64,000 nt of DNA from Ignavibacteriota bacterium (GTDB taxonomy: Bacteria; Bacteroidota; Ignavibacteria; UBA10030). The notes below the pieces were generated by a model that searched no databases, was not told the DNA's origin, and saw nothing but the letters and a program-made list of their open reading frames with translations. Of this stretch, positions 2,927 through 61,822 are shown one piece after another (within the stretch, counting starts at the first letter, position 1; each line of letters opens with the position of its first letter). Both the position numbers and the translations under genes were made by a program. Where the stretch lies: NCBI GenBank assembly GCA_963701295.1, contig OY969585.1, forward strand, positions 3,579,694-3,643,693. The letters run 5' to 3'.

Positions 2927-3362
2927 CGGATAGAATTTCCTTCACTTTCCGCTTATCGCCGCGAACAAACCAAATCGGTGCATCAATTCGTTTCATGAAT
3001 ACGTTGAGCCAGGCGGATGTGCCCTCTAAATTCCAGTTATGGATCTTATTTATTTTATATAACAAGTTTAAGCGATTCAACATTTTCGAACGATAATAGA
3101 TCCTATACCAAACACATTTTCGTTCTGGATATACTTCGCACGATCCTCCTGCGCCTGTTCCTCCACACGGCCCATTGCGTATCCTTTTGGGACATCTCTG
3201 ACTGCAGATGAAAGCTGTAGACGATAATATGCATTCGCCGCAGTGCTGACAACCGAAGACCGGCACTTTTACAATGTCTTCAAAAAGAAGTAGGAGGCGT
3301 GAGATTTTTTTTTCGCGCGGTGATATCGGAGGTTTTCCGGATGTAACAAAATCAATTGACAT
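2904..3362 (-). CDS. MTHFR C-terminal-like (MetV-type) Cys-rich zinc/Fe-S subunit
   Basis: CQHCGEC...CSQRCPKRIRNGPCGG...CEV...CVW pattern; overlaps the metF start. Confidence 0.85.
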   Translation of the reverse strand: MSIDFVTSGKPPISPREKKISRLLLLFEDIVKVPVFGCQHCGECILSSTAFICSQRCPKRIRNGPCGGTGAGGSCEVYPERKCVWYRIYYRSKMLNRLNLLYKINKIHNWNLEGTSAWLNVFMKRIDAPIWFVRGDKRKVKEILSDDTQRKN

Positions 3363-24223: not shown

Positions 24224-24297
24224 TGGGCCCTGCTGGACTCGAACCAGCGACCCGCAGATTATGAGTCTGCTGCTCTAACCAACTGAGCTAAGGGCCC
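24224..24297 (-). tRNA. tRNA-Ile2 (anticodon CAT, lysidine type); CCA not encoded
   Basis: Reverse complement GGGCCCTTAGCTCAGTTGGTTAGAGCAGCAGACTCATAATCTGCGGGTCGCTGGTTCGAGTCCAGCAGGGCCCA folds as a cloverleaf. Sequence is Ile2-like rather than Met-like. Confidence 0.92.
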
Positions 24298-24301
24298 GTG
24301 T
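24259..24301. repeat. att direct repeat (left copy, within the intact tRNA)
   Basis: ttatgagtctgctgctctaaccaactgagctaagggcccgtgt. Confidence 0.95.
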
Positions 24302-34667: not shown

Positions 34668-35495
34668 TCACGACGAAGAAACGTTTTTCGTGAATTTATC
34701 TAAAAGATCATTGTAATCTCGATGTTTGAGCAATGTCTCTACAAGCTCTATCTTTCCTTGACTCTTTCTGTATGATGTAATTAGCTCTCTCCAAGAATCA
34801 TCGTTATACGCTCTGAAAAATGGATTTGCTAGTTCTATCTGTTGGGTCAAAGAACTCATTTCCAACAAATGTGGTTTTACGAAATCTGGAAATGTGCGCC
34901 GCTTCAGATTATCCGTGAAGAACTCAAACGATCTTATATGAATTGAATGTTCATCAGAAAAATGATTTCTTCTCTCTAACCATTGGTGACTGTTTTTTCT
35001 TGTTCCTATAATAACCGTAAATGTTAATCTTTCAGATGGTATAATGCCACGATTATAAAATGGAAATATTTTATGGAATTCATTTCTGTTCTCTTTGATC
35101 CAATCTCTCCAATTGTCAATCTGTTGAACAGCAGCCATAAGTCTCGCAGAAGGATTCCCCCTTTTGGTATATGGAGGCGTTCCAGGTGTTTCAATCTCTA
35201 TGAATTCATACTGAATGCCTGCGCTTAGGCGATCATAGGTTTTAACAAAATCAACAATAAAATCTGAACCAAGTCTGAGCTTGGAGATGACTATACTTTC
35301 ATCATCAAATAACCGCGCTAAGAAGAATCCGGCGTGCTTTGAAAGGAAGCTATGATACACTTCCTCTTTAGCGTTTTCACTCAAGAGTCTGTTCCATTCG
35401 TTTTCAAGTTTTATTACAATGTCCCTTTTTTCACGATGTAGTAGTGACCAAGAATAATAATTATTGTCGGTAGAGCAAGGATTTTTCAATTTCAC
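34668..35495 (-). CDS. Shedu (SduA/DUF4263) anti-phage nuclease domain protein
   Basis: EEVYHSFL, KLRLGSDFIVDFV, FIEIETP, AAVQQIDNW, VIIGTR, IRSFE; GTG start overlaps the RM gene stop. Confidence 0.82.
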   Translation of the reverse strand: MKLKNPCSTDNNYYSWSLLHREKRDIVIKLENEWNRLLSENAKEEVYHSFLSKHAGFFLARLFDDESIVISKLRLGSDFIVDFVKTYDRLSAGIQYEFIEIETPGTPPYTKRGNPSARLMAAVQQIDNWRDWIKENRNEFHKIFPFYNRGIIPSERLTFTVIIGTRKNSHQWLERRNHFSDEHSIHIRSFEFFTDNLKRRTFPDFVKPHLLEMSSLTQQIELANPFFRAYNDDSWRELITSYRKSQGKIELVETLLKHRDYNDLLDKFTKNVSSS

Positions 35496-38383
35496 TATTC
35501 CTCCACAATCTTTATCTCTTCTTCCGTCAAGTCGTATAGCTCATACACACGTTCATCGATTTGACGGTTTAAGGTTTCGCATTGCATTTCGAGACGATTT
35601 GCTTCTGCTTCGGTTTTGGCATTCGATAATTTCTCTTTTGCATCCAACATCTGTTCGACAAATCTCACGATGTGATCGTGGCGAGACTTGTCTTGTGAAT
35701 CTTTAAAGTTGATTGTGCGGATGGGAAGCAGTTTAAGATCACCCACTGAAAGCCGCGGGAAGTTATCCTTCACAATTTTATTAGACACTAAAGGATATAG
35801 AAAAGAAAGTAATTTTGAGTTCAAGACACCAAGTAAATATTTTATCGAATAGCTCTCACCATTGATACAAATAATATTTAGAATTGTTTTGTAATTACAA
35901 TAAGTTTCTTCTACATAAGTTGCACATATTTTATAATCTCCCTTTCCAGTTATTTCTCTGATTAGGATTCGTGGACCAGACAACCATTCCATTGTTCTAT
36001 AATCGTGCAACCAAGGACCATATTTAATCCACTCGCGCTTTTGCCATTGTAGAGTATATCTACCCACATCGCTCCCGGATAATTCCATCAAATATTCCTT
36101 ACTCAGCCTTTTGGTTGAATGGAATATACGATCTTCAATTTGTTGCTTTGTATGTTTGCTACTATTATAAGCTTGAGTTCCTAATGATGCTCTTGCTATT
36201 TGGCCTAATGGCTTTGCTTTTGAGGATATTGACTGAAGTAAAGATTCAATTTTACCCGCTATTCGAGTCTCAAATCGAAACAAGGGATTTATTTCCCATA
36301 TTTTCTGATTAAATAAAACAGGTTCAACAGAATTCAACATATCAATAGCAAATTCTTTGGGAAACGTCCATACAAATACTGTGTTATCGTTTTTATTGTT
36401 GATACTTTTTCTTTTTAATATTGTAACAGAAGTATCAACATTGGCTGCTTCAAAGACCTTATGATTAAAGATTAATAGCTTGCCTAATGCAGTATTCGCA
36501 AGAACGTATTCTCTGAGTTTATCTGTAAATTGAAGGGTATACCAAGTATTCGGTGTGATATAACCCAAATATCCATTTTCCTTAAGTAATGATATAGCCT
36601 TTTCGATGAAGAGATGGAATAGATCTGCCTTATATTTAAAACTTGAATACTTCTTTTCAAGATATTCAATAGCACTGTCCTCAAAATCATCCTTTAGAAT
36701 AATCCGATACGGCGGATTTCCTACCACTGAATCAAATCCTCCACGCTTCATCACAGCAGAGAACGCATCTTCAAAATTCATCGGCTTCAACTTGTTTTCA
36801 TCTACATCAGCAAAGAGTTGACCATCAATAATATCACGAGCTATAAGCGAATTACCGTTGATGATGTTATTCCGCAAGTCCGGCAAGATCGTTTCCTTAA
36901 ACATCCCAAATTGGTGCGCATCGTGCATCGTTACATCTTCCAACAATTTGAGATAAAGTGAAAGCTGAGTTACTTCCGTTGCCTGAAAGTCGATATCAAC
37001 TCCATACACATTGTTCAGCAGTATCTCTTTTTTCTTCTTTAAGGTCAGGTGCAGTTTGCCATCCCGTTCAAAGACATCTGCTTCCTTCTGCTTTTCGGGA
37101 TGCGCAACATAATAGCGGGTATGATACTCTAAAAGCTGATTATACACTTCAATCAAGAAAGATCCGCTTCCGCAGGCAATATCGGCAAATGTCATCTCTG
37201 TAATTTCTTTAGGAGTTTTCCCCTCTATGAGTTTCCCTACCGTTTCACTTACGATATACCGAACAATATACTCCGGTGTATAATACACACCGCCGGCTTT
37301 ACGCACTTCCGGTTTCTCTTCTACCTTCACACGCTTGTCTGTGGCGTGCACTACCTTGCCAAGAAATCTTTCGTAGATACTGCCAAGAATAGAAATAGGA
37401 ATTTGATCGAAATTGTAAGGTGAATGAGGATCCGATAATTCACGGCAGATATCGCCAAACTCTTCATCATCCGGTGGAACAAACTCTTTTTCATCCAGCA
37501 CTTTATGCGGTTTGAAAACGAGTCCGTTATACTTTGGATCCAACTGTTTACAAAGTTCAAGAAATCCTTTCCACGCAGACTTCTTTGAGGCCAGTTGAAT
37601 AATTACAGGTTCTTCTATCTGCTTATCTTCAAGAAAACGGATAAAGACTAACCGATCAATAATCCGCTGGACAGCTTCTGTGAGTTCTTCGCTTTGGAGA
37701 TTAGGATTGGATTTCTTAAATGCTTTCGCTAACACTTCTCGGTATTTATCTAACTCTTCTAAGAACGCCTCATCGACCGGTTGATAGCCGCCTTTGATAG
37801 CTTTTCCTCTTAGCTTTGGCAGTTCGGCTACACGTTTTTCAATAGAACCACTTGCTACTGCTTCGCGTGAAAAGAGCCAATAGATACGAGAGAACTTTTC
37901 CTCATTTGCATAATCGCTGTAATGGAAGTATTCGATCTTATGAATCATCACATTTTTGATGTTTGGCTTAAAGCGGCAATCAAGGATGTGGAATTCTTCG
38001 AAGTCCGTAAGTATTGCGATGGGAGTATTGGCATTCCATCCATAGCGAATGGTTTGATAGTAATCATCAGGATTGGCGAGGTTGCGAGATGGTTTTTTCG
38101 CTTCGACAAAGAATTTTGGATCGCGGAAATTCGGTGCAAGAAAGAATGCATAATCGGAACGGCGCTGTGAACCTGCCATATGCACTTTGTTCTCGATATG
38201 AACCTCCTGCTGATATGGATTCATTTGAACATTGTGTGTTACGTCCCATCCGAGGGCAGTAAAAAATTTATCAATAAAGTCCTGCCGTATCTGGCTTTCC
38301 TGATACCCAGGAGAGAGATAGGCTGATTCTTGCGCTTTGAAGTTTGCAACGAGTTGCTTTATAGTATCGAATGCTTTATTCAT
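35495..38383 (-). CDS. Type IIG restriction-modification enzyme (Eco57I/TaqI-like fused REase-N6 adenine MTase-TRD)
   Basis: N-terminal SDY...VEAKKP nuclease; GVYYTPEYIV; DIACGSGSFL (SAM binding); GNPPY; TaqI_C-like tail. Confidence 0.92.
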   Translation of the reverse strand: MNKAFDTIKQLVANFKAQESAYLSPGYQESQIRQDFIDKFFTALGWDVTHNVQMNPYQQEVHIENKVHMAGSQRRSDYAFFLAPNFRDPKFFVEAKKPSRNLANPDDYYQTIRYGWNANTPIAILTDFEEFHILDCRFKPNIKNVMIHKIEYFHYSDYANEEKFSRIYWLFSREAVASGSIEKRVAELPKLRGKAIKGGYQPVDEAFLEELDKYREVLAKAFKKSNPNLQSEELTEAVQRIIDRLVFIRFLEDKQIEEPVIIQLASKKSAWKGFLELCKQLDPKYNGLVFKPHKVLDEKEFVPPDDEEFGDICRELSDPHSPYNFDQIPISILGSIYERFLGKVVHATDKRVKVEEKPEVRKAGGVYYTPEYIVRYIVSETVGKLIEGKTPKEITEMTFADIACGSGSFLIEVYNQLLEYHTRYYVAHPEKQKEADVFERDGKLHLTLKKKKEILLNNVYGVDIDFQATEVTQLSLYLKLLEDVTMHDAHQFGMFKETILPDLRNNIINGNSLIARDIIDGQLFADVDENKLKPMNFEDAFSAVMKRGGFDSVVGNPPYRIILKDDFEDSAIEYLEKKYSSFKYKADLFHLFIEKAISLLKENGYLGYITPNTWYTLQFTDKLREYVLANTALGKLLIFNHKVFEAANVDTSVTILKRKSINNKNDNTVFVWTFPKEFAIDMLNSVEPVLFNQKIWEINPLFRFETRIAGKIESLLQSISSKAKPLGQIARASLGTQAYNSSKHTKQQIEDRIFHSTKRLSKEYLMELSGSDVGRYTLQWQKREWIKYGPWLHDYRTMEWLSGPRILIREITGKGDYKICATYVEETYCNYKTILNIICINGESYSIKYLLGVLNSKLLSFLYPLVSNKIVKDNFPRLSVGDLKLLPIRTINFKDSQDKSRHDHIVRFVEQMLDAKEKLSNAKTEAEANRLEMQCETLNRQIDERVYELYDLTEEEIKIVEE

Positions 38384-38458
38384 AGGTTTTCATAATAGCT
38401 TATGCTACCCATCTGTCATATCGATAACAACTAACTCAAGCCACTCCATTTAAAGTTG

Positions 38459-39391
38459 TTATTGCCAATAATCTTCGGGGTAAGGAAAATCAGAATCATA
38501 ATCTTGTTCAAAACTATGATATTTACTAAAACCATCAATTTCAGGAAACAACGTTGCAACAGAATATCCAAAAAGACCATTCCAATAGTCTGATTCCATT
38601 GAATTCATATCTTCTTTCAATTCCGGAGTTATAGCAATCGGAACAAGACCATATTGGAAATCCCAAATTTTAGGACTAGGAATACCAACACTTTTAACTG
38701 GCACACTTCCCCATTTTTCTGCAATCGGTTCGCAGATTAAGAAAATACCTTGCTGAACTTTCATCCTCTGGAAAATATGGATTGGTTCCCAAAAACATAT
38801 CCGATTCTTATACTTTTTCAAAAATTCACCAATTGGAAGCATTATATCGCTGTAATTGATAATTCTTTTTGCCTTTTGCATTTGTGTGATTAGTCGACCA
38901 GTAAAAACCACGCCAACTTCATCTTTATGTGATTGACAAGCAAACCATAGGGCTACAAATGCATTTTTTGTGAAATCTAATAAACGAGTTGCAGCACCAT
39001 AATGTTGGAGGACTGAAAGTAATTCCAGATCATATAATCTTCGCCCATTTTGATAGTCATAACCCATTCTCCGAGCTTCATTTAACAACCGCTGTTCATA
39101 TTGATTTATTGAGGACTGCAAAACATTGGTTTTATATGAAATTGGTGCAGGAGTGCTATTAATCCCTCCTTTATCTGCCCAGCCATAATTAAGTAATCGT
39201 CGGACACCCGAAGGGTGTAACGCCCAATTTATTTTAGATTGACCACGCCATATGGCATTACCACCGATTACGTCTGCCAAGTAAGAGACAAACTTTGAGT
39301 ATTGACCAAAATCCTTCGGAGCCCAAACTTTTCCGTAAAGTTTTGTTTCCACTTTTGGTAATATTTTATAATCAATTTTATTATCCCACAT
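38459..39391 (-). CDS. FRG domain protein
   Basis: WRGQS...LHPS...LQHYGAATRLLDFTKNAFVALWFAC...RMKVQQGIF. Confidence 0.9.
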   Translation of the reverse strand: MWDNKIDYKILPKVETKLYGKVWAPKDFGQYSKFVSYLADVIGGNAIWRGQSKINWALHPSGVRRLLNYGWADKGGINSTPAPISYKTNVLQSSINQYEQRLLNEARRMGYDYQNGRRLYDLELLSVLQHYGAATRLLDFTKNAFVALWFACQSHKDEVGVVFTGRLITQMQKAKRIINYSDIMLPIGEFLKKYKNRICFWEPIHIFQRMKVQQGIFLICEPIAEKWGSVPVKSVGIPSPKIWDFQYGLVPIAITPELKEDMNSMESDYWNGLFGYSVATLFPEIDGFSKYHSFEQDYDSDFPYPEDYWQ

Positions 39392-39501
39392 ATGATTTCA
39401 GCCTAACAATTAGGCTTCGATAACGCGAATATTCATATTGAACTACCAATCCCATTCCATATTAACATACTTCATCCAATATTTATTTCTCTTTGTTGTC
39501 T

Positions 39502-40380
39502 TTAATAATACGTATAATCAAATTTCAAGAATTCAATTGGTTCATTCGAAGAGGAAAAAGATCTCAATTCAATCAACATCCCGTCCATTGCATACTTAAA
39601 GGTTGTAGTCTTGGCTAATTTATTTGAATATTGTAAATATTCTCTGACCTCCACGATGAACCTGTTGCTATCATAAACCGATACAGTTGTAAGAGCAGGT
39701 ATATCGCTTATATCATCAAAAGTTTGTTTAGTTGATTCAATTATCTTTCCATAGTCATCATATCTGAAAGTAATTGTGACCTTTGTCCATCTGTGCGCAC
39801 GGGTTCTTTCCTCAATACCAGTTGAGTCAACAACAAGCCCCTTTCCATTAAATTTAACTGTCCATTTGAAGTCGTCTTCCTCGATTAGATCTCCAAACTT
39901 GTCACATTTAAAAGTTTTTTGCCTATTTAAATCCACGGTGTTTCCATTCCGATACTCGGTGATTTGAACGTTTCCCACATTATCATATAGAAATATTTGC
40001 TTGATCTTAAAAGGAACGCTTTGAAGTTGTTCATCCTTACAAACGGTAACTACTATTCGTCCCAGATTATCGTATTCCATATGCCAGTGATCTGACATAT
40101 CGCCGCTTTCAGTGTAAAGCATTTCTTCAATCCTATTACCGTGCTGATCAAATTGACTAAATGTAGATTTCTTCGCTATAGAATCGACTACACCATATCT
40201 AACTTCATAATTCCATTTGGTCATTGTCTTTACCTTGGCAGATTCCATCTTAATTTTAATCGATTTTCTATCGCCCTGCTTCAATTTAGCCATTAGAAGA
40301 TCGTTCAAATCTCTTGTTTGACTGAAGAGGCTGGTTGAAAGTAGGCTGAATCCAAAAATAATAAAAAGAAATTTACCCAT
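39502..40380 (-). CDS. Exported hypothetical protein with YD-like beta-hairpin repeats
   Basis: Signal peptide; repeated (F/Y)DxxGxxIE motifs; ends YTYY; RBS AAGGAG. Confidence 0.7.
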   Translation of the reverse strand: MGKFLFIIFGFSLLSTSLFSQTRDLNDLLMAKLKQGDRKSIKIKMESAKVKTMTKWNYEVRYGVVDSIAKKSTFSQFDQHGNRIEEMLYTESGDMSDHWHMEYDNLGRIVVTVCKDEQLQSVPFKIKQIFLYDNVGNVQITEYRNGNTVDLNRQKTFKCDKFGDLIEEDDFKWTVKFNGKGLVVDSTGIEERTRAHRWTKVTITFRYDDYGKIIESTKQTFDDISDIPALTTVSVYDSNRFIVEVREYLQYSNKLAKTTTFKYAMDGMLIELRSFSSSNEPIEFLKFDYTYY

Positions 40381-40563
40381 ATTTAATCTCCTTAATAGAA
40401 ATCTTATAAACGGCATCTTGCCTTTATAATGACCTTCCAAATATTATATTTCTTTTTTTGCATCAACTAAGTTTATTACTTTTGGGCGGCCTTCTTTTGT
40501 TGGCGTAGAGCTACAACGTCGGCAGCATTTGCTATAAAGGTAATTAAATGGTGCATAAGACAC

Positions 40564-40637
40564 AAAAATAAAAATCCTCGACGCACTACCAGACGCCGAG
40601 GATTAGGGAGGCTAACGCGTTGTTGGGGAAACAACGC
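40564..40637 (-). ncRNA. Candidate ~75-nt sRNA (island copy)
   Basis: GCGTTGTT-TCCCC-AACAACGC, GTTAGCCTCCCT, a 12-bp stem with loop CTGGTAGT, then a T-run; homologous to 61549-61623. Confidence 0.8.
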
Positions 40638-40643
40638 AGGGCT

Positions 40644-40672
40644 ATTGTAAGAATTGTTCGGCTCTTTGTCAA
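40644..40672 (-). promoter_or_regulatory. Consensus sigma70 promoter of the island sRNA
   Basis: TTGACA-N17-TACAAT, 6 nt upstream of the first hairpin. Confidence 0.85.
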
Positions 40673-40687
40673 TTACAATTTTAGCTG

Positions 40688-40870
40688 AATAATAAAGAAC
40701 CCCGATATCATAACAGATATCGGGGTCTAAAGGGGAATGGGAGTAAATAAACACCGCGCGCCAACACAGTGATGCTACTGAAAAATAGCCGATGATATCG
40801 AAGGGGAACCGATATCAACTACTCCCATTATTATTTTTGATTCGTAAACTTTTATTGTAAGCGTAGTGAT
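40688..40870 (-). ncRNA. Second candidate structured sRNA with two UUCCCCUU motifs
   Basis: AATGGGAGTA/TACTCCCATT closing stem, inner TGATATCG-GTTCCCCTT-CGATATCA hairpin, final ACCCCGATATC/GATATCGGGGT hairpin. Confidence 0.55.
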
Positions 40871-41032
40871 ATTTACAAAAAATAGTTTGAAGAGTCAATT
40901 TCTACCACAAAGCACCCACGCATAATATTCATATTGTCTGATCAATCTTCTTGCCATCCAGTAGTTCAATGCTTATTAATATTCTCGATTGAATTGAACA
41001 GTCATTAATAATTCAAACGAGGCATCCCTCAT

Positions 41033-41887
41033 ATGGTAATTTGGAGTCCTTCAAGTTGGGCTTTATTTAAGCAATGTCCTTACAAGTATAAAATCAAAGT
41101 AGTTGAACGATGGCAACATCCAGAAATTAAACTGGATCAAACTTTTGCGAAGCTTGCAATTCCCGGCCTTACAGTTGATCGCGTCCTTCAGTTTTGGATT
41201 CATCGGAATCAGTTTGACGACAAGAAATGGCTTCAAGACAATTTTGATATGTTTTGGAAAATGGTTCTAAACGAAATCAAACCTAAGTGGTCTGAGCTCG
41301 AATCCATTGCTATCAAAGAAGAGACCCAAGTCGGTCTGAGAACTGCAATCCAAATGCTCGAACAAATAAACTATTCGAATTATTCGTTGCAGGTTCAGCC
41401 TAATTTCTTTGAAAAGATTACGGATGATTTCTGTATTGCAGGCAGCGCGGATTTGGTTCTTGCTGAACCTGATTCTACCAACGCGATACTCATTGATTTT
41501 AAGAACTCGCATAGTCGTGAAAGACTCACAAAAGACCAACTTCTCTTCTATCAAATTGGCTTGAAGAAATGCACACCTTATCAGTTTAAACGGGCAGGAT
41601 TTCTAATGTTCAATCCTCGGCTTGAAGAATGGAAGTGGTTTAAGCTGGATGAGCGACACGAAAATAAATTGATTAAGAGCTTGAGTGAAGCAACAGCAAA
41701 AGTAAATAAAAGTGAATTCAATTATCGTTGGAATCATTTTTCCTGTGCAAGGTATTGTGAAGTCCGTTTTGGATGTCCGATGTTTCAGAAGCTTCTTGGC
41801 CGAAATCGTTTTCGAGAATTTGAAAAGGTAAGTAAAAATGAAGTATTGCCTGAGAACAGTAACGTGGAAATTCCGCGAAACAATTGA
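41033..41887 (+). CDS. PD-(D/E)XK nuclease, RecB/AddB/Cas4-like with probable Fe-S cysteines
   Basis: SPSS...QCP, GSADLV, LIDFK, QLLFY, C-terminal CARYCEVRFGC. Confidence 0.82.
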   Translation: MVIWSPSSWALFKQCPYKYKIKVVERWQHPEIKLDQTFAKLAIPGLTVDRVLQFWIHRNQFDDKKWLQDNFDMFWKMVLNEIKPKWSELESIAIKEETQVGLRTAIQMLEQINYSNYSLQVQPNFFEKITDDFCIAGSADLVLAEPDSTNAILIDFKNSHSRERLTKDQLLFYQIGLKKCTPYQFKRAGFLMFNPRLEEWKWFKLDERHENKLIKSLSEATAKVNKSEFNYRWNHFSCARYCEVRFGCPMFQKLLGRNRFREFEKVSKNEVLPENSNVEIPRNN

Positions 41888-45696: not shown

Positions 45697-45942
45697 ATGA
45701 AAACGCAGAAGGAAGTAATGAATATTGATGAAACCGCCGACTTTATAGGCGTCTCCCCAAGCAAGATACGTCAATTAGTCCGCGAAGGACGAATTCCTCA
45801 TATTAGGCTTGACGGAAGAATTTTATTTTTAACTGTTGAAATAATCGATTGGTTGAAAAGCAAACAGGTTGCTCCCGTAACAGAAAATATATCTGATAAA
45901 TTAACTGATGATGTGTTCAAGCGATTGAGGAAGGCCATCTAA
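45697..45942 (+). CDS. Excisionase-type HTH DNA-binding protein
   Basis: MNIDETADFIGVS...LVREGRIPHIRLDGRILF...WL (HTH_17 pattern); stop overlaps the int start. Confidence 0.88.
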   Translation: MKTQKEVMNIDETADFIGVSPSKIRQLVREGRIPHIRLDGRILFLTVEIIDWLKSKQVAPVTENISDKLTDDVFKRLRKAI

Positions 45943-47045
45943 TGGCAGCGCTCCGAAAACGTGGAAGAATATGGTATGTTGATTGTTATTATGAAGGCCG
46001 GCGGAGGCTTGTCTCAACTAAAACATCAAACTACGAAACAGCGAAAAAGATAAGAGATCGTATTGAAATAGAAATCGCACTTGGCATATTCCTGCCGGAT
46101 AAAGCCCGGGCAATCAAAATTACTTTTCAGGAATTCTTTGACGAGTATTTTAAAATTGTATCCAACCAAAAGGCAAAAAACACAATACGGAATGAGAAGC
46201 AATATGCAAGACAAGCGGTAGAGATAGTCGGGAACATCTTTCTAAAAGACATAACGACAAGGAAAATGGATGAATGGAAGGCAAGAATAATTAATGAAAC
46301 AAGCCCGACAACTTTCAATATTCGATATCGATTTCTCCACGCCGCTTTCAATCGTGCGATACGTTGGGGATATCTTGATAAAAATCCCTTAGCAAACGTC
46401 ACTAAGGTAAAAGTTGATGAACATAGACTGTATTTGACAAAAGAAGAAACTATAAAAGTATTCAATGCAATTGATAAGCGCCTCCTCCGGCTGCAATCGC
46501 GTAAACGCCATACCAAGATGCCCTTATTCAAAAAGTGTGCTGTGTTCTTGCTCAACACAGGGTTACGAATCGGTGAAGCTTGTCAGTTACAAATGAGAGA
46601 TGTCGACCTTAGCAACAAAGTCATACACGTCGAGAAAACAAAGACCTACCTTTCTCGAATTGTTCCGCTTACGCCTGATGCATTAGAGATCCTTAGTAGT
46701 TTAGATGACAGTCTATTCCAGAATCTAACTGAAGGATATGTAAGCCACGAATTCGGGCGCTCCTTAACAGAGGCTGGCCTTGTCGGATTTAAACAGCATT
46801 CTTTGCGTCACACATTTGCAACACGTTTAGTCGAATGTGGCGTTGATCTTTTCGTTATTAGTAAAATACTCGGGCATACCAGTATGAAGACAACTATGAT
46901 ATATGCGAAAGCCGGAGTAAATACTCTTCGGAGCGCAATAGGTCTGCTTGATGTAGGATTGCATAGTATACAAAATAGTGACACTAAAGATGGAAAGGAG
47001 GAAAATACCGTTATCAGACAAGGAGATTTAGAGACTGGTAAGTAG
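45942..47045 (+). CDS. int: Tyrosine recombinase/integrase
   Basis: TGLRIGEA, KTK, HSLRHTFAT, LGH, TTMIY catalytic set; N-terminal arm-binding segment; adjacent to att. Confidence 0.95.
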   Translation: MAALRKRGRIWYVDCYYEGRRRLVSTKTSNYETAKKIRDRIEIEIALGIFLPDKARAIKITFQEFFDEYFKIVSNQKAKNTIRNEKQYARQAVEIVGNIFLKDITTRKMDEWKARIINETSPTTFNIRYRFLHAAFNRAIRWGYLDKNPLANVTKVKVDEHRLYLTKEETIKVFNAIDKRLLRLQSRKRHTKMPLFKKCAVFLLNTGLRIGEACQLQMRDVDLSNKVIHVEKTKTYLSRIVPLTPDALEILSSLDDSLFQNLTEGYVSHEFGRSLTEAGLVGFKQHSLRHTFATRLVECGVDLFVISKILGHTSMKTTMIYAKAGVNTLRSAIGLLDVGLHSIQNSDTKDGKEENTVIRQGDLETGK

Positions 47046-47046
47046 C

Positions 47047-47089
47047 TTATGAGTCTGCTGCTCTAACCAACTGAGCTAAGGGCCCGTGT
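47047..47089. repeat. att direct repeat (right copy) = orphan 5' half of tRNA-Ile2
   Basis: Identical 43 bp to 24259-24301; covers the tRNA 5' end through the anticodon loop only. Confidence 0.95.
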
Positions 47090-50857: not shown

Positions 50858-51013
50858 AGATCTCCTAATTATTCAATAATCATACTTCTATAGGATAGAA
50901 CAATAGAACCGAAAATTCAAGCTGTATTCCATTTCAAACTCATTTCTTTATTGAATCTTATTCCGATAATCCATAGAATAAGACTGCATATTGGAATATT
51001 TCCGGAGAATATC

Positions 51014-51448
51014 ATGGAAGAATTTATGAGTGCTGCCATCAAAGAAGCCAAGCTTGGCTTACAGGAAGGCGGAATTCCCATCGGTTCGGTGCTGGTGCGG
51101 GACGATAAGATCATCGGGCGAGGACGCAACCGCCGTGTTCAGAACAATGATCCGCTTGCACATGCCGAGATTGAGTGCCTTCGCAATGCAGGACGCATCG
51201 GTACATACACAAACACAATTCTCTTTAGTACTCTCACGCCATGTTATCTTTGTTCCGGTGCAATTGTCCAATTTGGAATCGAGAAAGTGATCGTAGGAGA
51301 TTCGAGAAGTTTCAAAGGAGATATAGAATTTCTGAAAGATCATTGGGTCACTGTTGATGATTGGGACTGGGAGGAATGCAATGATCTGATGAAGGAATTC
51401 ATAGAAAAGAATCCAACTCTCTGGAATGAAGACATCGGGAAGCTCTGA
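51014..51448 (+). CDS. Cytosine/nucleoside deaminase (FCY1-like, CDA superfamily)
   Basis: GGIPIGSVLV, HAE, PCYLC, WNEDIG C-terminus typical of yeast-type cytosine deaminase. Confidence 0.85.
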   Translation: MEEFMSAAIKEAKLGLQEGGIPIGSVLVRDDKIIGRGRNRRVQNNDPLAHAEIECLRNAGRIGTYTNTILFSTLTPCYLCSGAIVQFGIEKVIVGDSRSFKGDIEFLKDHWVTVDDWDWEECNDLMKEFIEKNPTLWNEDIGKL

Positions 51449-51453
51449 CCATT

Positions 51454-51927
51454 ATGACAAATCAACAACTCTTTATAAGGAAAGCGATTAAACTCTCTTT
51501 AGAAAATGTCCAAACGGGAAAAGGCGGGCCATTTGCTGCTCTCATAGTAAAGGACAACAACATCATCGCAAGCGGAACAAATCTTGTTACATCCTTGAAC
51601 GATCCTACAGCACATGCAGAAATCATTGCCATTCGCGAAGCATGCAAAATACTCAGAACCTTTCAACTGGAAGGATGCGAGATGTATTCTTCCTGCGAAC
51701 CATGCCCTATGTGTCTCGGCGCTATTTATTGGGCACACTTGGAAAAAATATTCATCGCCTCAATCATGAAAGACGCTGCCGATGTTGGCTTTGACGATGC
51801 ATATATTTATTCAGAATTTTTCAAACAGATTAGTGAACGAAAAATACCGATGGTCCTGATGCCTCAAAATGAAGCTCTCGCGGTATTCAAAGAATGGAAG
51901 GAAAAGGGAGACAAAATCAGATATTAA
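51454..51927 (+). CDS. guaD: Guanine deaminase (Bacillus GuaD type)
   Basis: GGPFAA, DPTAHAE, SCEPCPMCLGAIYW, GFDDAYIY, terminal Tyr. Confidence 0.85.
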   Translation: MTNQQLFIRKAIKLSLENVQTGKGGPFAALIVKDNNIIASGTNLVTSLNDPTAHAEIIAIREACKILRTFQLEGCEMYSSCEPCPMCLGAIYWAHLEKIFIASIMKDAADVGFDDAYIYSEFFKQISERKIPMVLMPQNEALAVFKEWKEKGDKIRY

Positions 51928-61514: not shown

Positions 61515-61543
61515 TTGACATTCACGTGTCCAGAATTTATCTT
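61515..61543 (+). promoter_or_regulatory. Sigma70 promoter of the chromosomal sRNA
   Basis: TTGACA-N17-TATCTT with no downstream plus-strand CDS. Confidence 0.82.
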
Positions 61544-61548
61544 GTGTC

Positions 61549-61623
61549 GTGTCGTCTCCCCGACGACACATAGTTAGCCTCCCTATACTCCGGCGTCTGG
61601 TAGTACGTCGGGGTATTTTTTTT
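61549..61623 (+). ncRNA. Candidate ~75-nt sRNA (chromosomal copy)
   Basis: GTGTCGTC-TCCCC-GACGACAC, GTTAGCCTCCCT, ATACTCCGGCGT-CTGGTAGT-ACGTCGGGGTAT plus a T-run; lies between convergent genes. Confidence 0.82.
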
Positions 61624-61822
61624 ACTACTCTCTTTTTTTATTGACCGACTAAAGGAACCCTCTTGACCAATTCCCATTTCTCATTGATGTACGCCATAAA
61701 TATTCGATTTAAAAAACCATACTTTTTAATTTCAAGTTGGGCGTGCGTCTGAGAAACTCGCAAGACTGAAGAGTCTATAACTCAATACACATGAATAATT
61801 GAGGATTGTATATTTTTCGTCA

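Follow-up and report, generated by a model that had tools for sequence, protein, structure and literature searches.

Two sRNA-like genes in the window

The window analysed here, a 64,000-nt stretch of contig OY969585.1 from an Ignavibacteriota bacterium, carries two copies of a short element, called sRNA1 in the following, laid out as a small RNA (sRNA) gene. Copy A lies on the minus strand, at the head of a string of defence genes in an integrative island, and copy B on the plus strand, outside the island. Both consist of a promoter, a first hairpin with a C-rich loop, a C-rich linker, and a second hairpin which, with the U-run that follows, makes an intrinsic terminator. All features are listed by window position in Table 1. 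The promoter of copy A agrees with the consensus at 11 of 12 positions, and scans returned consensus promoter and terminator matches at both loci. The predicted folds of A and B are made exactly of the two hairpins, with z-scores of -5.7 (A) and -4.4 (B); none of 200 shuffled sequences folded as stably, and the antisense strands folded worse. In the minimum free energy folds the C-rich segments of both copies are unpaired.

The two copies are 72% identical over 71 columns. Their linkers and terminator loops, both single-stranded, are identical, while promoter spacers and flanking sequences are unalignable. Coding of a protein by sRNA1 is excluded: no frame starts with ATG, linker and stems feature indels of 1–2 nt, and substitutions in the stems are compensatory. 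The elements bear the general marks of sRNA genes, a promoter and a Rho-independent terminator in an intergenic region and a covarying structure.

A second sRNA-like gene, sRNA2, is found just upstream of copy A. It represents a longer (~170 nt) C-rich family, often placed in tandem directly before sRNA1. The core in the window features a hairpin, CAUCACUGUGUUGGCGCGCGGUG, followed by the C-rich linker UUUACUCCCAUUCCCC. In the family consensus the hairpin CAYCACUGUGUUGGCGCGCRGUG is invariant, the linker reads UUUACYCCC..UCCCC, and the terminator stem varies by compensatory changes. The putative 5' part includes an A-rich leader, a G-rich GGGAG motif and a hairpin with a C-rich loop (UUGAUAUC, loop GGUUCCCCUUC, GAUAUCAU); the promoter proposed for it falls below the cut of the consensus scan. 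The same 5' layout, promoter and hairpin with C-rich loop, is present in the copy found at 546 kb of the window's own genome (G000; other G and L codes denote the other genomes and loci compared). A small open reading frame (ORF) in sRNA2 was considered and discarded, as a 1-nt indel between copies breaks the frame.

Table 1. Features of the window, in window coordinates
Feature	Position	Strand	Basis or detail
sRNA1 copy A (island copy)	40563..40640	-	sequence, fold, match to covariance model R1 (89.2 bits), terminator scan
Copy A promoter	40644..40672	-	TTGACA 40672-40667, 17-nt spacer, TACAAT 40649-40644
Copy A hairpin 1	40637-40617 (also given as 40638-40616)	-	GCGUUGUU / loop UCCCC / AACAACGC
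Copy A linker	40616-40605	-	GUUAGCCUCCCU
Copy A terminator	40604-40573	-	12-bp stem, AAUCCUCGGCGU / loop CUGGUAGU / GCGUCGAGGAUU; U-run to ~40564
sRNA1 copy B (conserved syntenic copy)	61546..61626	+	R1 match (102.8 bits), fold, sequence
Copy B promoter	61515..61543	+	TTGACA 61515-61520, 17-nt spacer, TATCTT 61538-61543; A/T-rich stretch upstream
Copy B hairpin 1	61549-61569	+	
Copy B linker	61573-61584	+	
Copy B terminator	61585-61616	+	followed by U8
sRNA2 core	40682..40789	-	R2 model match (98.8 bits), terminator scan; own terminator stem 40727-40698
Putative sRNA2 5' part and promoter	40790..40898	-	inferred from the sequence; TTGACT 40898-40893, 17-nt spacer, TAAATA 40875-40870
312-aa ORF	39502-40440	-	directly downstream of copy A
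Co-directional gene string downstream of copy A	34668..40440	-	312-aa ORF to Shedu SduA_C
Eco57I/MmeI-type restriction-modification enzyme	35495-38383	-	
Shedu SduA_C	34668-35495	-	
Left direct repeat	24256..24301	.	overlaps the 5' part of tRNA-Met (24224-24297, minus strand)
Right direct repeat	47044..47089	.	partial tRNA-Met 5' copy, abuts the integrase gene
HTH_17 (excisionase-like) gene	45697-45942		precedes the integrase gene; E 1.2e-11
Tyrosine integrase	45942..47045	+	Phage_integrase, E 3.3e-28
Two adjacent cytidine/deoxycytidylate deaminase-family genes	50951-51927	+	just outside the island; dCMP_cyt_deam_1 / MafB19-deam

sRNA1 is restricted to one family of Ignavibacteria-type bacteria

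Among 41 related genomes, that of the window included, 13 contain the sRNA1 core, defined as the linker, 10–18 nt and the terminator loop, with 34 occurrences in all. The reversed pattern, used as a control, has no occurrence in the same 41 genomes, and the recurrence is thus more than chance. An alignment (A2) of 25 full-length copies served for RNAalifold, for pair counts and for the covariance model R1. RNAalifold returned two helices with 20 pairs, and 17 of the 20 have undergone compensatory double changes. In the 25 copies, 96.8% of cells are paired, against 83.7% in shuffles (none of 500 reached the observed value), and when partners are slid by 1–3 columns only 32–41% of cells remain paired; the covariation score computed by the pair-count tool is 0.452 versus 0.205. 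Invariant positions are those left unpaired, namely UAGCCUCCCU, the C-rich hairpin-1 loop, and the terminator loop along with its closing pairs. The hairpin-1 loop is UCUCCCC-like in most copies. The stems of sRNA1 are under selection as RNA structure.

Much of what a first-pass annotation had read from copies A and B holds. The architecture that it described (promoter, two hairpins, a common linker, an 8-nt terminator loop, a U-run) was found at both loci, with consensus matches for the promoter and terminator assigned to each; the C-rich segments it took to be exposed are single-stranded in the predicted folds, and the selection on RNA structure which it claimed is confirmed by the double changes and by shuffle and slide controls that score far lower. 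Its view of two related loci has to be widened, as the covariance model search brings out about ten paralogues in this genome, and A and B do not form a pair.

In the 3.64-Mb genome of the window R1 has 10 matches at E<=1, of which eight also pass E<=1e-5; the other 15 genomes in the genus have 3–19 matches apiece. Within the taxonomic family, matches were found in 40 of 86 genomes and 16 of 33 genera, and are weaker outside the genus. In an even sample of the class (151 genomes) only three have a match at E<=1e-4, the window's genome and two of the same genus, and none of the genomes sampled outside the taxonomic family has one at that threshold. An exact-pattern scan of one genome per species, over 185,579 species, returned 37 stretches. 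Most of these (33/37) reside in metagenome-assembled genomes (MAGs) titled Ignavibacteria-type or 'Bacteroidota bacterium SPRUCE'. Another, on a 3-kb contig from a bin labelled Izemoplasmatales, has an R1 match of 81 bits and probably denotes a binning error. The remaining three, some in MAGs labelled Desulfurococcaceae and Deltaproteobacteria, have no R1 match and were taken as chance hits. The core pattern has no match in a collection of viral contigs.

Searches with nhmmer and R1 identified 73–75 distinct copies in the loci examined. The TTGACA-N17-TAnnnT layout is retained in most full-length copies, although the spacers differ. The 5' hairpin or a recognisable -35 box is missing from some copies, and weak, degenerate copies exist. 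In 19 of 73 copies other 5' parts precede a 3' segment of ~50 nt, which begins at GUUAGCC and comprises just the linker and terminator; this suggests that the linker and terminator form the functional core. Among the linker-terminator copies found in other genera, some carry a 5' hairpin of another kind and of greater length. In distant relatives from other genera (L061, L063, L064, L069), CAGCCUCCCU and the terminator are kept, and the loop of the longer 5' hairpin is G/A-rich (GAGGAG-like) and could pair with the CCUCCC linker of the same RNA. One copy classed as 3'-only, in G019, turned out to be a complete gene, having a promoter of its own and a hairpin 1 interrupted by an insertion of ~60 nt, and none of the R1 matches examined in the window's own genome is a partial copy of this type. 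A short palindrome, GTCATCCCGCAACGCGGGATGTC, and its variants are found inside this G019:C1 insertion (L003/L088, ~3115-3160) and beside other copies (L011/L089, G005:C3), and may be a small mobile or REP-like element.

A model of the sRNA2 core (R2) has five matches above 70 bits in the window's genome: the island copy, and those at 546,789, 2,217,594, 2,381,205 and 2,761,219. Other copies were found in G002, G003, G004, G009, G010 (two), G011, G019 and G054. The tandem sRNA2-sRNA1 module (window 40565-40903) recurs at 77–80% identity at 546 kb of the same genome and in G011:C58, G010:C2 and G019:C1. The two genes are directly adjacent in G010 and G011, and an integrase gene separates them in G002. 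With the module recurring in this way, what the island carries is a single unit made of paralogues from two host sRNA families.

Neither element corresponds to a known RNA family. In Rfam 15, at gathering thresholds, the window features tRNA-Met only. With the limit relaxed to E<=10, nothing was found on copy A, and the Chlorobi-1 motif, a comparison which the first-pass annotation had named in reporting no recognised family, is not listed on either A or B. The best scores of copy B, BjrC1505 (RF02356; 16.5 bits, cut-off 50) and anti-hemB (RF02837; 15.5 bits, cut-off 49.5), are far below threshold; their alignments cover hairpin, CCUCCC and terminator, and denote resemblance in layout only. 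sRNA2 has no Rfam match above threshold, its score for RsaE being 17.8 bits versus a gathering score of 79. RsaE/RoxS RNAs of Firmicutes (RF01820) target ribosome-binding sites through C-rich motifs followed by a terminator hairpin; having no signal for that family (sRNA1), or 17.8 bits only (sRNA2), the elements described here are not members. sRNA1 is a new, lineage-restricted family, probably of a known kind, the C-rich base-pairing sRNAs.

Neighbourhoods of the copies and the island of copy A

sRNA1 genes are of two kinds: one conserved syntenic member, B, and many members residing in variable regions, A among them. B-type copies number 16, one per genome (the window's genome, the set of its 15 genus relatives and G082), and B orthologues are 87–97% identical to B. 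B-type loci have in common an AMP-binding-enzyme gene upstream. The gene downstream is convergent in all 15 B-type loci having a downstream ORF, the sixteenth being at a contig edge; because of this orientation, copy B cannot be a leader.

The 57 non-B copies reside at many different places. By crude calls of ORFs of 70 aa or more, 56 of them have a downstream ORF, which is co-directional in 47 and usually 50–450 nt away. Among 46 non-B copies with Pfam annotation, 23 have, among the three ORFs that follow, at least one of a defence-type or integrase family, as tallied by hand (restriction-modification, Abi/toxin-antitoxin, STAND NTPase, PLD-SNF2 helicase-nuclease, integrase). This share is inflated, as several loci were chosen because copies cluster there, and adjacent copies do not count as independent cases. 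U-tracts are more often interrupted in non-B copies, the median of the longest U-run being 5, versus 7.5 in B-type copies.

Several copies may punctuate one region. The order is sRNA, sRNA, nSTAND1, Patatin, sRNA, D12 methylase in G005:C56, and sRNA2, sRNA, 197-aa ORF, sRNA, AbiEi_2, HsdM, HsdS in G019:C1. In G005:C14, Endonuclease_NS and DUF1648 are followed by sRNA, His_Phos, GT4-conflict/nSTAND1 and more, then by another sRNA and SNF2/PLD. In six genomes of the genus (L005, L014/L070, L018, L024, L084, L086) an sRNA1 copy marks the edge of a hypervariable hotspot that follows a conserved Endonuclease_NS gene; the cargo of the hotspot includes AbiEii/DUF6577, GT4-conflict/nSTAND1, SNF2/PLD and integrase genes, and the edge is at times made by sRNA2 plus sRNA1. 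In the window's genome the copies at 3,016,944, 3,509,984 and 43,074 lie among housekeeping genes, those at 546,667 (AbiEi_4 downstream) and 2,837,084 (integrase and ThsB_TIR nearby) in variable-looking DNA. The habit of sitting before defence cassettes is unusual.

Copy A sits in an integrative island of 22.8 kb, bounded by direct repeats of 46 nt (repeat family D1) and inserted at tRNA-Met. The repeat corresponds to the 5' part of the tRNA gene, from the anticodon arm to the 5' end plus 4 nt, and not to the usual 3' end. The island is made of a backbone-like block (PD-(D/E)XK, RadC, DUF932, Gam-like) and a minus-strand string of cargo genes, encoding the 312-aa ORF, FRG, the Eco57I/MmeI-type enzyme, Shedu SduA_C, Nmad3, REase-ARP and a UDG-like protein. 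The tRNA-Met repeat, the integrase, SduA_C and the Eco57I/MmeI-type enzyme agree with the mobile defence island that the first-pass annotation had proposed. Copy A is placed at the joint of the two blocks. Pfam, at E<=1e-5, gave nothing for the 312-aa ORF, which heads the FRG/restriction/Shedu string. A counterpart of the backbone block, 83% identical, is present in G001, the homology ending at 41042; since that locus has no R1 match, the sRNA is not a fixed part of the island element. The relatives closest to copy A are found in G014 (85%), G011 (82%) and G002, G007 and G019 (80%), the last being of another genus.

Possible roles of the RNAs

The reading preferred here, to which about equal belief and doubt are given, is that sRNA1 forms a family of trans-acting, chaperone-independent sRNAs resembling anti-Shine-Dalgarno (SD) sequences, with about ten paralogues in this genome, copy A being an accessory one. 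An RNA of 75–80 nt, started at its own sigma-70-type promoter, would fold into the two covarying hairpins and end at the intrinsic terminator. Its exposed C-rich stretches (the UCUCCCC loop and the CCUCCC linker) would pair in trans with G-rich, SD-like sites in mRNAs without the aid of Hfq, ProQ or CsrA, resulting in repression at ribosome-binding sites. Copy A would have arrived with variable DNA and would supply a common regulon with extra dosage or with a promoter under different control; it would not be a fresh copy of a gene of this host. We infer that a discrete RNA is transcribed, that its C-rich segments serve as seeds and that it represses at ribosome-binding sites.

The proposal draws on the invariance of the single-stranded segments, on copy B, which cannot be a leader, and on the reuse of the linker-terminator module. 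It draws also on the genome itself, which uses SD-like motifs (AGGA is found upstream of 23% of crude starts, versus a background of 5%) and lacks Hfq, ProQ and CsrA, for which the same searches were positive in control genomes, and on the precedents of 6C and cuckoo RNAs. The expanded, well-supported family would offer a first way into the post-transcriptional control of this lineage, as a full-text literature search turned up no work on small or non-coding RNAs of Ignavibacteria and the genome has none of the three proteins. A literature search on small RNAs in defence islands found nothing relevant. If the elements are functional, the placement of many copies directly before restriction, Abi/toxin-antitoxin, STAND and helicase-nuclease genes, and at the border of a recurrent variable hotspot, would link sRNA regulation to the organisation of defence islands.

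Sequence complementarity was surveyed throughout the genome. Exact or one-mismatch complements of the linker are the sRNA genes themselves and one site resembling a ribosome-binding site. The latter, AGGAAGGCUAAC-C-AUG at G000:C1:1345695 (minus strand), complements the linker at 11 of 12 positions, is placed as an SD site followed by a start codon, and is the closest candidate target. Candidates with top-scoring duplexes include a 245-aa ORF (1320856), a 116-aa ORF (787823) and a recA-like ORF (3245614). The RNA data are those of one peat metatranscriptome run, available as contigs of relatives which share 0.07 of words and convey no strand, starts or ends. Relatives of the flanking genes are found among these contigs at 85–95% identity, and paralogues of sRNA1 and sRNA2 match the conserved cores only. 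One 86-nt contig (depth 23.6) covers an sRNA1 paralogue from near hairpin 1 as far as the U-tract, and hints weakly at a discrete RNA.

Several observations weigh against a trans-acting role. Stable duplexes show no enrichment at translation starts when compared with the inside of genes, and the only long complements that a genome-wide search found are the sRNA genes' own antisense strands. A simple seed model does not account for the invariant terminator loop CUGGUAGU. Another metatranscriptome contig includes the -10 box, and such contigs can contain DNA. No consensus promoter was found by the scan between the terminator of copy A and the 312-aa ORF; and the prevailing co-direction of non-B copies with the next gene, as well as their shorter U-runs, fit a role in cis too. 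An ungapped scan for runs of at least 10 pairs gave nothing convincing.

Known sRNAs give partial parallels. In enterobacteria, horizontally acquired sRNAs and paralogues of core sRNAs reside in islands and prophages, as exemplified by IsrK and the RyhB paralogues. Copy A resembles these as an sRNA gene carried by an integrated mobile element alongside core-genome sRNAs, and differs from them in that the family, known here from sequence alone, has about ten members which recur before many unrelated defence cassettes. The cuckoo/RSs0680 (CcsR) family of alphaproteobacteria features an anti-SD-like CCUCCUCCC motif and several copies on chromosome and megaplasmids (PMC4615179). In the same account these are, like sRNA1, short modular hairpin RNAs with a fixed C-rich, anti-SD-like motif and variable stems, present as several paralogues per genome on chromosome and accessory replicons, with fragmented synteny (PMC4615179). 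Cuckoo RNAs, as far as described there, have CCUCCUCCC in every loop of 2–4 hairpins, while sRNA1 has CCUCCC in a single-stranded linker; they belong to a different phylum, and one member is bound by Hfq, which is absent here (PMC4615179). In sRNA1 only the first loop is C-rich (UCUCCCC/UCCCC), hairpin 2 being a terminator with the unrelated invariant loop. Membership was rejected, as the 2–4 adjacent CCUCCUCCC-loop hairpins by which the family is recognised in that account are not found in sRNA1.

The 6C sRNA of actinobacteria binds mRNAs through C-rich loops independently of chaperones, as stated in its report (PMC6486639). Unpaired C-rich segments, G-rich mRNA sites and the lack of a chaperone, here proposed for sRNA1, would be common to both (PMC6486639). 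They share no sequence or Rfam relationship, and 6C, as described there, is one conserved sRNA, with no expansion in defence islands.

A different view, possible but doubtful, is that the element works in cis, promoter, structured leader and leaky terminator together making a portable control cassette placed before genes, often of defence. Downstream expression would depend on regulated read-through, promoted for example by a factor binding the invariant terminator loop or the C-rich linker. The 47 of 56 non-B copies with a co-directional ORF, usually 50–450 nt off, and the 23 of 46 annotated ones with defence-type or integrase families nearby agree with this, as do the interrupted U-tracts and the stretch from copy A to the 312-aa ORF, in which the scan found no consensus promoter. 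One unit appears to go with each cassette in arrays like sRNA-nSTAND1-Patatin-sRNA-methylase (L082) and sRNA-GT4/STAND...-sRNA-SNF2/PLD (L086). Against it, the best-conserved member, B, is never followed by a co-directional gene (15 B-type loci have a downstream ORF), the gap to the next gene varies among copies, and the defence share is inflated by the choice of cluster loci. Conserved antiterminator pairing is not found, the CCCCGAC/GUCGGGG complementarity of B being missing in A. Pairing of the sRNA to the beginning of the gene that follows it was also considered and set aside, there being no excess (p 0.11 and 0.89). In type III toxin-antitoxin systems an RNA gene with a leaky terminator precedes one dedicated toxin family; this layout was rejected, the families downstream of sRNA1 being many and unrelated (HsdR, SNF2/PLD, AbiEi, nSTAND1, methylases, GH26, DPPIV).

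A broader proposal, which we regard as unlikely, is that the element, often as sRNA2 plus sRNA1, is a portable RNA module travelling with anti-phage cassettes of Ignavibacteria, either as a shared control circuit or as joints for cassette exchange. If so, with a copy of its own in each cassette, dozens of unrelated defence systems would be tied into one RNA-based circuit, and the elements, as RNA genes, would parallel the recombination sites spaced along integron arrays.

The first-pass annotation held that the island had captured a host sRNA gene, B, and that A mimics, boosts or titrates the circuit of B, which seems quite unlikely. The single-stranded segments (linker and terminator loop) are identical in A and B and could address the same partners; A resides on a bona fide integrative island, and its promoter differs from that of B, so that regulation may differ. 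Recent capture from this host is nonetheless unsupported, as A is 72% identical to B, versus 80–85% to copies of other genomes, the nearest being that of G014, followed by those of G011 and G002/G007/G019; B orthologues, by comparison, are 87–97% identical. The picture of one host sRNA and one captured copy does not fit a genome with eight further matches. The A-type module with sRNA2 is found also at other variable loci outside the island, and the homologous G001 backbone has no sRNA.

It is improbable that the units act primarily as DNA, that is, as homology anchors or as recombination or attachment sites for the exchange of defence cassettes at hotspots, RNA being secondary. Copies do mark the edge between conserved flank and variable cargo beside the Endonuclease_NS gene in six genomes, and integrase genes are close to some (1 nt in L015, 35 nt in L014/L070, near G000:2837 kb); an integrase gene lies between sRNA2 and sRNA1 in G002, the two being adjacent in G010 and G011, and in 19 of 73 copies nothing but the 3' ~50 nt from GUUAGCC is retained. 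The role as a cassette joint is weakened because compensatory stem changes and retained promoters point to selection on RNA rather than on a DNA site. No island was found in which a full copy and a matching partial copy flank an integrase gene, and the island of the window uses tRNA-Met. The idea that 3'-only copies are duplicates of attachment sites was rejected, as the G019 case is a full gene, with its promoter and ~60-nt insertion, and this genome has no partial copy.

That sRNA1 is a selfish or neutral repeat without RNA function (REP- or MITE-like, or made of reused terminators) is highly improbable: the elements are multicopy and scattered, and some are degenerate or without 5' hairpin or -35 box, but copies are few (10 matches in the genome) and neither terminal inverted repeats nor target duplications were seen in the sequences read. 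The promoterless, REP-like repeat which the first-pass annotation had named as one case that would refute it is not what was found, as the copy number is low, the promoter layout is kept, stems covary, unpaired bases are invariant and one copy is syntenic across the genus.

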